Shown here: in pieces, positions 37,467-41,343 of the stretch
Layout of the letters: each line of letters starts with the position of its first letter
Position numbering within the stretch: position 1 is the stretch's first letter
DNA from: Escherichia coli
Lineage (GTDB): Bacteria; Pseudomonadota; Gammaproteobacteria; Enterobacterales; Enterobacteriaceae
DNA: 64,000 bases
Assembly: GCF_013315695.1 (NCBI RefSeq)
Contig: NZ_CP054353.1
Strand: one strand, 5' to 3'
Position numbers and translations under genes: made by a program
Notes under the pieces: model-generated
Databases searched by the model: none
What the model was told of the DNA's origin: nothing
The model's input: the letters and a program-made list of their open reading frames with translations, nothing else

Positions 37467-38411
37467 TCAAGGGTACGGGTCCGCTTCGTTTGATTTGCGT
37501 GTTTTTAACAATTTTAAAACCCAGACATACTGTTCCGGATGTGGCCCCACCAAAATTTCCACTGTTTTGTTCATTTGTCGGGCAATCATTTTATTGTCCG
37601 CGCTGGCAATGCAAGCATCCATTGGTGGCCGAATTTCAATAGTCAGGAGATGTTTTTTTTCATCATAAACCGGGAAAAGTGGTATAATCATAGCCTGACT
37701 GATGTTCATCAGACGTCCAATGATTGGTAATGTCGCTTTATAGGTCGCAAAAAAATCAGCAAATTCACTGTATTCAGGACCATGATCCTGATCTGGGAGG
37801 TAATATCCCCAGTATCCCTGGCGTACTGACTGAATAAATGGTTTTATCCCATCCTCCCGGGCATGTAAGCGCCCCCCGAATTTACGCCGTACTGAATTCC
37901 AGACATAATCAATCACTGGATTTCGTTGCTGATGAAACATGGCGGCCATTTTTTTTCCCTGAGCTGCCAGCAACATTGCAGGAATATCCACGCTCCAGCC
38001 ATGGGGAACCAGAAAAATCACATTTCTATTATTGTGTCGAATTTCCTCAAGAATTTCGAGGCCTTTCCAGAACACTCGTTTCTGGAACTTTTCCGGACCA
38101 CGAATTGCCAGTTCTGCCATCATCACTATGGATTGCAATGCTGTGGCAAACATTTTGTCGACAATTATTTCCCGTTCTGTATCACTCTTTTCTGGGAAAC
38201 AAAGCGATAAATTAATCGTCGCCCTGCGACGAGCTTTTTTGCTCAATCTGCCCGCCCAACGCCCTATTTTTGCCAAGACAGGATCTCTGAATGAAGGGGG
38301 AAACATTGAAATGCCTGCAATCATTCCCAAAAGGAACCATGTAGACCAGTAAACAGGGGAAAGGTAATTTTTCTTAAATTCAGGAATAAACTCAGATTTA
38401 TATTTTTTCAT
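37467..38411 (-). CDS. msbB2: lipid A late acyltransferase (LpxL/LpxM family), MsbB2-like
   Basis: 314-aa HtrB/MsbB family protein; last gene of the shf-capU-virK-msbB2 cluster. Confidence 0.75.
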   Translation of the reverse strand: MKKYKSEFIPEFKKNYLSPVYWSTWFLLGMIAGISMFPPSFRDPVLAKIGRWAGRLSKKARRRATINLSLCFPEKSDTEREIIVDKMFATALQSIVMMAELAIRGPEKFQKRVFWKGLEILEEIRHNNRNVIFLVPHGWSVDIPAMLLAAQGKKMAAMFHQQRNPVIDYVWNSVRRKFGGRLHAREDGIKPFIQSVRQGYWGYYLPDQDHGPEYSEFADFFATYKATLPIIGRLMNISQAMIIPLFPVYDEKKHLLTIEIRPPMDACIASADNKMIARQMNKTVEILVGPHPEQYVWVLKLLKTRKSNEADPYP

Positions 38412-38475
38412 TATTTAGTGCGAATGCCTCTACCAAAATTATCATTACTGTTTTATTCAGAGAATACATCAAATC

Positions 38476-39426
38476 TTAATTTAAATTCTGATGTTCTGAG
38501 TGTACAGGATATGCATCCAAAGAGCGGATAGTAGTTTCATGGATATAATCCAGCAAAGCGTATCGTTTTCGGTACTCAGAGCGTTTTTTACTGGCTATAT
38601 CGCTTAGCGGCTTTCGAATCACCTGGGTTGGTAATCTGTACCAGTCACCACAGGTTTTTCCTGCTACAGACTCCCAGAAATCACTATAGACCGCAACAAA
38701 GGTTTTGCGTTTCTGATACCAGTATCTCAATTGCCGGAAAACATGACTGTGCTCACTGACTGCCAGACACTCAGAGATATTGCAAGCTTTCATCAACGCA
38801 CAAAATGCTTCAAAAATAATCCGTTTTGGGAAAATCCCATAACAGGCCCGGGTTGCGCACCGAATAACATCAGGTCCGGTATTTTTAGGGGCTCCCTGTA
38901 ATCCGCCAATAAAAGCAATGTGTCCATTTTGAGTCAGAATGACTGAAAATGTTAACCGGGCAATAACTGTTTTATTGTAAAACAATGACAACATCAACTC
39001 TCCTTCCCGGTCAAAACCACTGGGAGAACACTGGATATCAAAATTCTCTCCATCTTTTCCGATGAATTGGACTAATGATACCGATTTTTGTGGAAACAAA
39101 AATTTAGAATATTTTTCTGGCAAATTTTGCACAAAGCGATAATGCTCAAGAATATATTGTCCACGGGTCCAGGCGCGCCCCCCTTTATGCAAATAAGGGC
39201 GATGAATTCTTGCTGGCAACGTGGGGTGTATTGCCAGAATATCCTCAATGCACGGCAAGGAACGCAGTTCATAATAATATCGAATACTGACAACCGGATT
39301 TATAGAACATCGCAAAATGTACATGAACCGAAATTTTCTGTGTTCCCACTTCCCCGGTAGTGAATCTGAGGAAAAAATAATCCTTTTAAGGAAACCGATA
39401 AATGATAAGTTACTTATAGAAAACAT
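38476..39426 (-). CDS. virK: VirK family protein (DUF535)
   Basis: 316-aa protein between glycosyltransferase and acyltransferase as in the Shigella/EAEC plasmid locus. Confidence 0.7.
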   Translation of the reverse strand: MFSISNLSFIGFLKRIIFSSDSLPGKWEHRKFRFMYILRCSINPVVSIRYYYELRSLPCIEDILAIHPTLPARIHRPYLHKGGRAWTRGQYILEHYRFVQNLPEKYSKFLFPQKSVSLVQFIGKDGENFDIQCSPSGFDREGELMLSLFYNKTVIARLTFSVILTQNGHIAFIGGLQGAPKNTGPDVIRCATRACYGIFPKRIIFEAFCALMKACNISECLAVSEHSHVFRQLRYWYQKRKTFVAVYSDFWESVAGKTCGDWYRLPTQVIRKPLSDIASKKRSEYRKRYALLDYIHETTIRSLDAYPVHSEHQNLN

Positions 39427-39430
39427 ATTG

Positions 39431-40519
39431 TTACTTTTGCTTCGCTAATGTGAGTATTTTTAACGCAGTTTTATTAATATCAAACCGCTCTTCTATATCC
39501 TGTTTTGCCAGGCGAGCCATCTGATAAAAACGCCCAGGGTCATTAAAAAAATCATTCAGGGCGCACATCCATGCGTGCTTATTACCTGCTGGTAACAATG
39601 TCCCGGTCTGGTTGTTCTGAATAACCTCAGGGATTCCACCAATCTGAGTGGCCACTACAGGCACAGAAAATGCCGATGCTTCTGCCAGCACCATACCAAA
39701 AGATTCGTTTTCTGAAGGCAGAACCACCAGACTGGCAACCCGATATACGGGGGCGGCAGGAAAAACATTGTCAGCAATAAAAACATCATCATGCATGCCC
39801 ATACTGTCAATCTGATACTGTAAATGTTCCCGCAGTTCAGGTGAACCAGACCCCACAATCAACCAACAGAACTGTCGTCCATTCATTTTTAAATGGAACA
39901 GTAAATTCAACATAAATTCGTGCCCTTTTTCCGGGCGCAACATTCCTACCTGAGCAATTACGGGGCATCCTCTTCGGGACGCCAGCCAGGAAAGAACACT
40001 CGGAGGCAAACTGTTTCGGGAATCAACGTATAATTCCTGGAAATCAAAGCCAGGAGGCACAACAGTAACCCGAGTTCGACATCCTTCCTGCTCCAGATGT
40101 GTCTTCATATTTGTTCCGGGAACAATCACCTCATCGCAAAAATGATTTATTGAAAAAAATTTTGTTTTTCGTGTCAAATATGTCTTTTGCCTGATAATTC
40201 TGAATGGATGTTTCCAGGTAAAAAACCGTACCAAACCAACAATATTACTATCATGTCCACTGTGACAAACGATTGCATCGGGCTGAAAACTATGAACTAT
40301 TCCGAGTAATCTCCATACAGTAGGAATGTGAAGACTGTTTCGAAATAACGCGAATGTGATATCAATTCCAAACTTACTGGCTTCAAAAGCAATTTTGCTG
40401 TTCTCCCTGCAGACAAGCAGAACTGAATGCCCCATTTTCTTCAGGGCCTTCATTTGAGCAACAGCCTGTAATTCCTGACCACCTATATTCGGTGATGATT
40501 CCGTAAATAGTATATTCAT
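39431..40519 (-). CDS. capU: glycosyltransferase family 1/4 (CapU/WabB-like hexosyltransferase)
   Basis: 362 aa with GT-B fold C-terminal E-x7-E-like region; synteny with shf and virK. Confidence 0.72.
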   Translation of the reverse strand: MNILFTESSPNIGGQELQAVAQMKALKKMGHSVLLVCRENSKIAFEASKFGIDITFALFRNSLHIPTVWRLLGIVHSFQPDAIVCHSGHDSNIVGLVRFFTWKHPFRIIRQKTYLTRKTKFFSINHFCDEVIVPGTNMKTHLEQEGCRTRVTVVPPGFDFQELYVDSRNSLPPSVLSWLASRRGCPVIAQVGMLRPEKGHEFMLNLLFHLKMNGRQFCWLIVGSGSPELREHLQYQIDSMGMHDDVFIADNVFPAAPVYRVASLVVLPSENESFGMVLAEASAFSVPVVATQIGGIPEVIQNNQTGTLLPAGNKHAWMCALNDFFNDPGRFYQMARLAKQDIEERFDINKTALKILTLAKQK

Positions 40520-40521
40520 TA

Positions 40522-41343
40522 TTAGTCATCCGGTAATCTTGGCCCCTTATGAAGGGCCAGCAACGATGAAAAAAACGGTGTTGTATAATAAAAAAGTCGT
40601 CTTTTCAGCCATACGCAATTTTCCCGTTCCTTGGTGCTTATTCTTCCTATCCGTGTAGTTCCTTTAGCAGGAGCATTCATTCTTCTTTCTGTTGTATATA
40701 AATAATGGAATCCAAGTTCTTCAGCGATCTGAATATAATCCTTGTTATAATAACCTTCCGGCCAACACAAATGTTTACTGCATTTTCCTGTCATTTTTTT
40801 TAAATATTCTCTCCCGCTCAATAAGTCCTGCCGAAGATGTTTACACTGTTCTTCTCGTGAAGTGAACTTTTTATCCCAACGTGTATGAGTATGTGTATGA
40901 ACATGAAATTCGACCAGACCAGATTGCAACATTTCGTTCACTTCAGACCAGCGAAGCATAACATTATCAGCATTCCCGGTTGCTATTTGATGTTCGCAAT
41001 CGCGATGAGAATATTCCTTTCCAGGAGAGTGACGAACCGGACCATTTCCAATAAAACTGGTAATTAAAAAAATATGTGCCTTGAGATTAAACTCGTTTAA
41101 TAAAGGATATACCTGAAACCAGTTGTCAAGGTATCCATCATCAAATGTCAACATAACGCTTTTACGGGGAAGTTTTCCGCCCCGATAAAAAAACTCCAGT
41201 TCATCTGATGACAGTGTTTTCCAGTTGTTTTCAGCCAACCATTTCATTTGTTTCCGGAATGTCTCGGGAGAAAGTGTAACCAGTCCTGGGCAATGGCTGA
41301 CATGATGATACATTAATACCGGAACATGATTTGCTTTAAACAA
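40522..41343 (-). CDS. shf: polysaccharide deacetylase family protein (Shf-like)
   Basis: 273 aa with NodB-type motif LTFDDGY and conserved His residues. Confidence 0.75.
   Translation of the reverse strand: MFKANHVPVLMYHHVSHCPGLVTLSPETFRKQMKWLAENNWKTLSSDELEFFYRGGKLPRKSVMLTFDDGYLDNWFQVYPLLNEFNLKAHIFLITSFIGNGPVRHSPGKEYSHRDCEHQIATGNADNVMLRWSEVNEMLQSGLVEFHVHTHTHTRWDKKFTSREEQCKHLRQDLLSGREYLKKMTGKCSKHLCWPEGYYNKDYIQIAEELGFHYLYTTERRMNAPAKGTTRIGRISTKERENCVWLKRRLFYYTTPFFSSLLALHKGPRLPDD

Follow-up and report, generated by a model that had tools for sequence, protein, structure and literature searches.

The stretch of DNA analysed here, 64,000 nucleotides (nt) of an Escherichia coli contig (NZ_CP054353.1; the whole stretch is called the window below), carries on its minus strand between positions 37467 and 41343 the four genes shf, capU, virK and msbB2 (Table 1). 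A first-pass annotation of the same DNA had described four co-oriented genes for a polysaccharide deacetylase-like protein, a glycosyltransferase, a VirK-family protein and a lipid A acyltransferase. All four open reading frames (ORFs) were found where it had placed them, intact and in the same orientation, and matches to Pfam and TIGR02208 models agree with each of the family assignments. The genes are separated by gaps of 2, 4 and 64 nt, and their spacing is therefore operon-like. RefSeq names the corresponding entries in the collinear record of E. coli EcPF7 polysaccharide deacetylase family protein, capU, virK and lpxM.

Each of the proteins carries the signatures of its family. Shf matches Pfam PF01522 (Polysacc_deac_1; 2e-28) and contains the metal-binding and catalytic motifs TFDD (68-69) and H149-T-H-T-H that are characteristic of CE4 (NodB) enzymes; it is 96.0% identical to Shf of the Shigella flexneri plasmid pWR100 and 100% identical to Shf of p1081, a plasmid of enterotoxigenic E. 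coli (ETEC). RefSeq starts shf at 41364 (an ATT codon, 280 residues), whereas the TTG at 41343 gives 273 residues; the TTG looks the better start because GGAGG is located 7 nt upstream of it. CapU has the two-domain GT-B signature, with PF13439 (Glyco_transf_4) in the N-terminal and PF00534 (Glycos_transf_1) in the C-terminal half, and an EX7E motif (E272-X7-E), as found in retaining glycosyltransferases of family GT4. It is 95.9% identical to the pWR100 protein and 59% identical in amino acid sequence to Ecf2/WabB of pO157. VirK matches PF04393 (DUF535) over its full length (1.9e-89; model positions 2-278 of 281) and is 93.7% identical to pWR100 VirK. MsbB2 scores 443.5 bits against the NCBIfam model TIGR02208 (lipid_A_msbB), for which the cut-off is 336, and remains under the cut-offs of the LpxL and LpxP models. 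It retains the HX4D/E catalytic dyad (H137-GWSV-D), aligns with the crystal structure of Acinetobacter baumannii LpxM (5KN7) and is 96.5% identical to MsbB2 of pWR100 at the amino acid level.

These last values bear on the identity of the acyltransferase. The first-pass annotation had considered that it might turn out to be a chromosomal lpxL/lpxP paralogue unrelated to msbB2, and the housekeeping lpxM is a further candidate. The probability of either is next to nil: common membership of the superfamily is all that speaks for them, and the close match to pWR100 MsbB2, together with scores above the TIGR02208 cut-off and below those for LpxL and LpxP, stands against both. Housekeeping lpxM was rejected in addition because msbB2 is only ∼70-71% identical to it in nucleotide sequence and lpxM sits elsewhere in the same genome. 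An anti-phage defence role for the four proteins was likewise discarded, since PADLOC gave no matches when run on each of them.

At the DNA level the module is 99.0% identical to plasmid pAA of enteroaggregative E. coli (EAEC) 042, 99.8% to ETEC p1081 and 96.2-96.4% to the S. flexneri invasion plasmids (pINV) pWR100 and pCP301, and the products of all four genes are 99-100% identical to those of p1081. Low identity to the pINV and pAA sequences, which the first-pass annotation had entertained, was thus not what the comparison returned. Its recognition of the gene arrangement from the Shigella invasion plasmid and from EAEC plasmids holds in full for the former and in part for the latter: homology to 042 pAA starts at 38405, beside an IS21-family insertion sequence (IS), which confirms the published statement that the 042 plasmid copy lacks msbB2 (PMC2808357).

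The window is part of the E. coli chromosome, since it contains the core genes argF, valS, pepA, lptFG, yjgR and ahr and, over 50 kb, shares 99.94% identity with its closest match, the chromosome of the urinary isolate EcPF7. Core genes ahr and yjgR are located directly to the left of leuX. A copy of the 3' end of leuX recurs some distance downstream, and on account of this repeat the locus is considered to hold two tandem islands: a first islet of 10.4 kb (15356-25750) and, beyond the repeat, an older fec island, with a degenerate integrase at its start, in which the shf module lies. The hallmarks of a tRNA-leuX island are present, namely a start at the tRNA 3' end, integrases, the 3'-end repeat and a divergent base composition; the GC content is 40.7% in the module, 50.1% in the core genes and 57% in fec. 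The island's distal end falls outside the window. The earlier placement of the genes on the chromosome, inside the leuX island, is upheld by these data. On this evidence the region very probably represents, in intact chromosomal form, the shf-rfbU(capU)-virK-msbB2 envelope-remodelling operon that was originally reported from the Shigella invasion plasmid, together with the regulation and mechanism predicted for it below. Gene content, integrity, orthology and location are direct observations, as are the borders and the mosaic IS described next.

Table 1. Positions of the shf-capU-virK-msbB2 module, its genes and control elements, and the features that surround it in the window.
Feature	Position	Strand	Description
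leuX	15271..15355	+	tRNA-Leu(CAA), island integration site; ARAGORN
leuX 3'-end direct repeat	25728..25750	+	22/23 bases; DNA search: 2 matches, 0 expected by chance
IS600	36104..37350	-	98% identical to pWR100 IS600; NCBIfam IS3 transposase model
IS66-family terminal remnant (GTAAGCG...)	37351..37432	-	82 bp; msbB2-side border, truncated by IS600
shf-capU-virK-msbB2 module	37433..41507	-	4.1 kb, excluding the IS stub; sequence common to plasmid copies
msbB2 (lpxM2)	37467..38411	-	lauroyl-Kdo2-lipid IVA myristoyltransferase paralogue, 314 amino acids
virK	38476..39426	-	DUF535 protein, YbjX paralogue, 316 amino acids
capU (= rfbU / Sfgtr4 / WabB-like)	39431..40519	-	GT4 glycosyltransferase, 362 amino acids
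shf (SfPgdA homologue)	40522..41343	-	CE4/NodB-type polysaccharide or peptidoglycan deacetylase, 273 amino acids; TTG start after GGAGG
Candidate -10 hexamer TAGTAT	41430..41435	-	12 nt downstream of PhoP box; inferred
PhoP box TGTTTA-taaat-TGTTGA	41448..41464	-	upstream of shf; sequence reading
IS911-group (ISEc52-like) IS3-family element	41508..42750	+	frameshifted, mosaic; RefSeq: ISEc52 family or IS3 family
fecIRABCDE	43644..51189	-	ferric-citrate uptake operon, same island as module; EcPF7 RefSeq annotation and ORF list

The two flanking IS elements named in the first-pass annotation, one of the IS3 family on the msbB2 side and one related to IS911 on the shf side, are both real, and they allow the ends of the module to be placed precisely. 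Homology to pWR100 and to ETEC p1081 extends from 37433, 34 nt past the msbB2 stop codon, to 41610. At the msbB2 side it ends on an IS66-family remnant that matches without mismatch the end, at ∼57.7 kb, of a complete IS66-family element, upstream of tnpA. At the opposite side the region upstream of shf abuts the left inverted repeat (IRL) of the IS911-group element. This junction, including the variant TGAGGTGG...GCTACC, is common to pWR100, 042 pAA and ETEC p1081, which keep only a ∼103-bp stub of the IS, truncated in each plasmid at the same nucleotide. The module is foreign DNA bounded exactly by IS termini. ETEC plasmid pETEC_74 was considered as a second carrier of the IS66 junction and rejected, because its IS66 end is positioned ∼274 bp from the module border and hence forms a different junction. 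Relative to the intact IS600 of strain 1446, the IS600 of the window lacks 17 bp after 37032, where orfA and orfB overlap. The deletion fuses the two frames into a single in-frame ORF of 379 codons (36147-37286) that needs no programmed frameshifting; the fused transposase is likewise annotated in EcPF7.

The IS911-group element is a mosaic. When it was compared with VTB96926v, a module-less chromosome in which a full-length IS adjoins fecE, 63 mismatches were found in 41509-42299 and four in 42300-43700, and the same switch is seen against K-12 and strain 1446. The left ∼780 bp thus diverge by ∼8% from the resident fec-linked IS, to which the right ∼460 bp are essentially identical, and the crossover is located at about 42290-42300. 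With ISEc52 copies carried by many enterobacterial plasmids the left part shares 97.5-98.6% identity. Elsewhere in the window, at 27126-28368, there is a second IS911/ISEc52-like copy with 94% identity. Because the element is mosaic, with a distal part equal to the resident fec-linked IS, homologous recombination is favoured as the route of entry, and the module was most likely fixed in the fec-carrying leuX island by recombination through IS copies. It probably came with its own IS911/ISEc52-type element, which the crossover joined to the resident fec-linked IS.

Transposition of the module as a composite element, moved by its two flanking IS, appears very improbable by comparison. IS ends do bound the module exactly on both sides, and copies of IS600 are also found near msbB2 on pWR100, but the flanks are different in kind (IS600 plus the IS66 stub on one side, the IS911/ISEc52-like element on the other), both full-length IS are defective (by the 17-bp deletion and by the frameshift, respectively), and the IS911-like element displays a recombination crossover instead of a clean insertion. 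No direct repeats of at least 18 nt flank the module, a setting that is blind to target-site duplications of 3-8 bp. The composite-transposon model was rejected on the unlike and defective flanking IS and the lack of such a repeat. Of the IS-mediated transfer originally suggested, homologous recombination through IS copies is therefore retained, and transposition as a composite element is not.

Islands that lack the module provide a further view of the interval. In those of strain 1446 and K-12 the IS600 end abuts 41960 inside the fec-linked IS. Deletion of the module by an adjacent IS600-mediated event was considered, but K-12 retains a separate IS911 left part (90% identical), which suggests instead a simple insertion of IS600 into the IS. 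In NZ_CP104848.1, from a dolphin isolate, ISEcp1-blaCTX-M-14 replaces the shf module in the IS600/ISEc52 interval by fec (∼37350-41960), which suggests that the IS cluster next to fec is a recurrent landing pad.

A survey of 5,426 complete E. coli genomes located the capU-virK core in 523 of them, with 490 places on chromosomes and 96 on plasmids; 436 genomes carry at least 80% of the core, nearly all of them at 99% identity or more. At least 80% of the 10.4-kb context that runs from the BCCT transporter gene through IS600, the module and the IS to fecE is found in 330 of the 5,426 genomes. The chromosomal leuX/fec-linked copy occurs in roughly 6-8% of complete E. coli genomes and is annotated in RefSeq.

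These counts raise the question of the direction of transfer. A chromosomal or chromosomal-like arrangement with a full-length IS upstream of shf could be ancestral, and the ETEC, EAEC and Shigella pINV copies derived from it; we consider this order of events unlikely. In its favour, the plasmid copies examined all hold the ∼103-bp IS stub where the chromosome has a full-length IS, chromosomal places outnumber plasmid places as given above, and a search for a genuine plasmid donor with the module and a long IS returned only four atypical 'plasmid' records, at least one of which is an island fragment with fecDE. The plasmid copies are, however, the more diverse (96-99.9%), whereas 540 of 556 records, chromosomes and plasmids together, are at least 99% identical to the window, and the greater diversity on plasmids points to a plasmid pool of greater age and to one recent capture by the chromosome. 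The window copy is also closest to the ETEC plasmids and not basal, and the IS stub is ∼10% different between the window and the plasmids, a difference that may reflect later conversion. Potential outgroups (the pO157 ecf genes and a Salmonella plasmid GT4, 59-67% identical in amino acid sequence) are too distant at the DNA level for rooting. The stronger proposal, in which the leuX/fec copy is the main E. coli reservoir with the ancestral long IS junction and the plasmid copies, including Shigella pINV, descend from it, is somewhat more doubtful still.

One plasmid record with the long junction deserves description. NZ_CP060942.1 (pEC11-5, 21 kb) was deposited as a circular plasmid and is classed by MOB-suite as non-mobilizable; its content is the island segment DUF2254-BCCT-IS600-module-IS-fecED bounded by IS3. 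It may be either a circle excised through IS or an assembly artefact.

The region upstream of shf contains a PhoP box. The sequence in the window, TGTTTAtaaatTGTTGA (41464-41448), has half-sites identical to those of the footprinted S. flexneri 301 (Sf301) box tTGTTTAtgaatTGTTgAt, from which it differs by one spacer base. The Sf301 box was protected in DNase footprinting at -115 to -81 from shf, and an S. flexneri shf-lacZ fusion showed PhoPQ-dependent induction by low Mg2+, acid pH and polymyxin B (PMC5775216). According to the EAEC 042 genome paper, the chromosomal and the plasmid locus of that strain both have this shf promoter (PMC2808357). In S. flexneri M90T the -10 element (TAAATT) and the transcription start site (TSS) have been mapped by primer extension (PMC12562796). 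In an alignment with pWR100 the candidate hexamer TAGTAT occupies the place of the mapped M90T -10, and the 49-bp segment that lies beyond it in pWR100 is absent from the window. The same segment is absent from the ETEC and EAEC plasmid copies. The E. coli-type promoter would accordingly differ from that of S. flexneri in its -10 (TAGTAT) and in a 5' leader shorter by ∼49 nt. Since the M90T -10/TSS segment is missing, promoter function would rest on the PhoP box and the substitute TAGTAT, and the short-form promoter is assumed to be active.

For regulation and for the enzymatic roles in this strain we rely on homology with the systems described in the Shigella and EAEC literature. Phosphorylated PhoP (PhoP-P) would bind the box when Mg2+ is low, the pH is acid or cationic peptides are present, and would drive one transcript across the four tightly packed genes. 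MsbB2, an LpxM-like myristoyltransferase (PMC2808357), would add a secondary myristoyl chain to Kdo2-(lauroyl)-lipid IVA and so back up the housekeeping LpxM, such that lipid A would be hexa-acylated under PhoP-inducing conditions. CapU/RfbU, as a GT4 enzyme, is predicted to glycosylate lipopolysaccharide (LPS). RfbU/CapU has been tied to addition of glucosamine (GlcN) on the R3 core (as cited in PMC2808357), purified SfGtr4 moved glucose onto lipid A in vitro (PMC7355660), and CapU has been assigned to O-antigen synthesis (as cited in PMC5775216). Shf would act as a CE4 deacetylase on peptidoglycan or on a glycan containing N-acetylglucosamine (GlcNAc); Shf/SfPgdA and SfGtr4 interact, and their loss affects resistance to lysozyme and neutrophils as well as biofilm formation (PMC7355660). 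VirK would be a cytoplasmic YbjX paralogue required for the barrier function of the outer membrane, in line with the report of a cytoplasmic protein with a predicted GNAT-like fold that is needed for outer-membrane impermeability and polymyxin resistance and is partly redundant with YbjX (PMC12562796). The operon, which is regarded as a virulence locus in Shigella and EAEC, may in this way tune lipid A acylation, the decoration of LPS and peptidoglycan and the outer-membrane barrier under PhoPQ control, and would thereby affect innate immune recognition and resistance to cationic peptides.

Several observations weigh against this assignment of function and control. Published work disagrees on the substrates of CapU and Shf; Shf has been proposed to be either a polysaccharide modifier that affects biofilm or a lysozyme-resistance factor, and the characterised pO157 WabB, a GlcNAc transferase acting on HepIII of the R3 core, is no closer to CapU than the 59% given above. 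The 49-bp indel (window 41380-41440 versus pWR100 ∼8950-9010) falls exactly at the M90T -10/TSS. A simple scan of the region upstream of shf returned no canonical sigma-70 promoter; this is in keeping with activation by PhoP yet provides no positive evidence for it. No intrinsic terminator was found after msbB2 in the window, and nothing convincing in the plasmid copies. The genes that follow msbB2 on the same strand are the IS600 ORF, a BCCT (BetT-like) transporter gene (33996-35999) and a DUF2254 gene, and PhoP-driven read-through into the IS600 ORF and the transporter gene is conceivable.

Part of this evidence would also fit a locus that hitch-hikes as silent cargo with the fec island and adds nothing to the envelope of its host. 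Housekeeping lpxM is present in 5425 of the 5426 genomes, which would make MsbB2 redundant in rich medium; the 49-bp indel separates the promoter from the one mapped in Shigella, and the module has been lost or truncated in some genomes. However, the four ORFs are undisrupted and retain their catalytic motifs, the genes are kept at 99% identity or more in several hundred genomes, and the PhoP box is conserved, so that we regard silent cargo as distinctly improbable and favour a PhoP-controlled operon that acts on the cell envelope.

Other features of the window lie apart from the module. The 10.4-kb islet next to leuX encodes an Eco29kI-family restriction enzyme and a cytosine methyltransferase (15857-17745), a serine recombinase, the Kiwa defence pair kwaAB (21996-23572) and an intact tyrosine integrase (24310-25593, minus strand). 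The complete IS66-family element consists of tnpA (57292-57693), tnpB (56948-57295) and a transposase gene (55513-56898). A segment of ∼4.4 kb (56503-60969), which includes the rest of this element, is missing from EcPF7, and several ORFs at 57720-59716 gave no NCBIfam match. A unit of ∼98 bp occurs as a tandem duplication between holC and pepA (8003-8298), with 93% identity between offset copies.

The first-pass annotation had implied that a chromosomal copy of this locus is new. That is not so: the locus has been described in print (PMC2808357; PMC7545054) and is found more often than the plasmid form among complete E. coli genomes. In 2010 the genome paper on EAEC 042 reported a chromosomal four-gene copy, Ec042-4769-72, near fec (Ec042-4776-82) (PMC2808357), and PAI-CE10-leuX ('Fec, VirK, MsbB2') and PAI-ED1a-leuX ('MsbB2, VirK, fec, Ag43') are tabulated in a review from 2020 (PMC7545054). 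The 042 chromosomal copy is also mentioned in a 2025 paper on VirK (PMC12562796). The chromosomal leuX/fec-linked operon, known in print since 2010, is thus real but ordinary, and the present copy adds no new kind of system. What is added is modest: the exact IS-defined borders, a mosaic IS that records the crossover, the 49-bp indel that sets the E. coli-type copies examined apart from the mapped S. flexneri promoter, and a count in which chromosomal copies exceed plasmid copies.

Among known relatives, the KpLE2-type island of K-12 shares leuX, fecIRABCDE and the fec-linked IS911-type element with the window but lacks the module; from 41960 onward the two are 98.4% identical, with mismatches concentrated before ∼42300. 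The housekeeping LpxM (MsbB1) belongs to the same TIGR02208 family as MsbB2 and has the same predicted reaction, but its gene is found at another locus, outside the operon. The ecf1-4 operon of pO157 in E. coli O157:H7 (Ecf2 = WabB, Ecf4 = LpxM2) has the same four-gene architecture. It represents a distant lineage, however, as seen from the comparison of CapU with Ecf2 and from ∼71% nucleotide identity between msbB2 and the pO157 lpxM; the window copy is not a member of the pO157 ecf operon. One record of a pO157-group plasmid names the CapU homologue 'LPS -1,7-N-acetylglucosamine transferase Ecf2'.

The closer relatives differ mainly in setting. The shf-capU-virK segment of EAEC 042 pAA has its 99.0% identity over capU-virK, yet without msbB2. 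In ETEC p1081 (strain 1392/75) and pETEC_74 (strain E24377A) the module is 99.1-99.8% identical and has the same short promoter, but it resides on IncF plasmid backbones (ccdAB side), where only a stub of the IS is left; an intact lpxM is not among the genes in the incomplete plasmid gene table of pETEC_74. The S. flexneri pINV copy (pWR100/pCP301; SfpgdA-Sfgtr4-virK-msbB2) has the same gene order, orientation and spacing, the PhoP box and the IS911-like IRL junction, and differs in being plasmid-borne, in the extra 49 bp at the -10/TSS, in the ∼103-bp IS stub and in its other downstream flank. The chromosomal shf locus of EAEC 042 and the leuX islands of CE10 and ED1a have the same four genes on the chromosome, by fec and within the leuX island; CE10 is 99.8% identical to the window over 4.2 kb, and between these loci and the present one nothing substantive differs.

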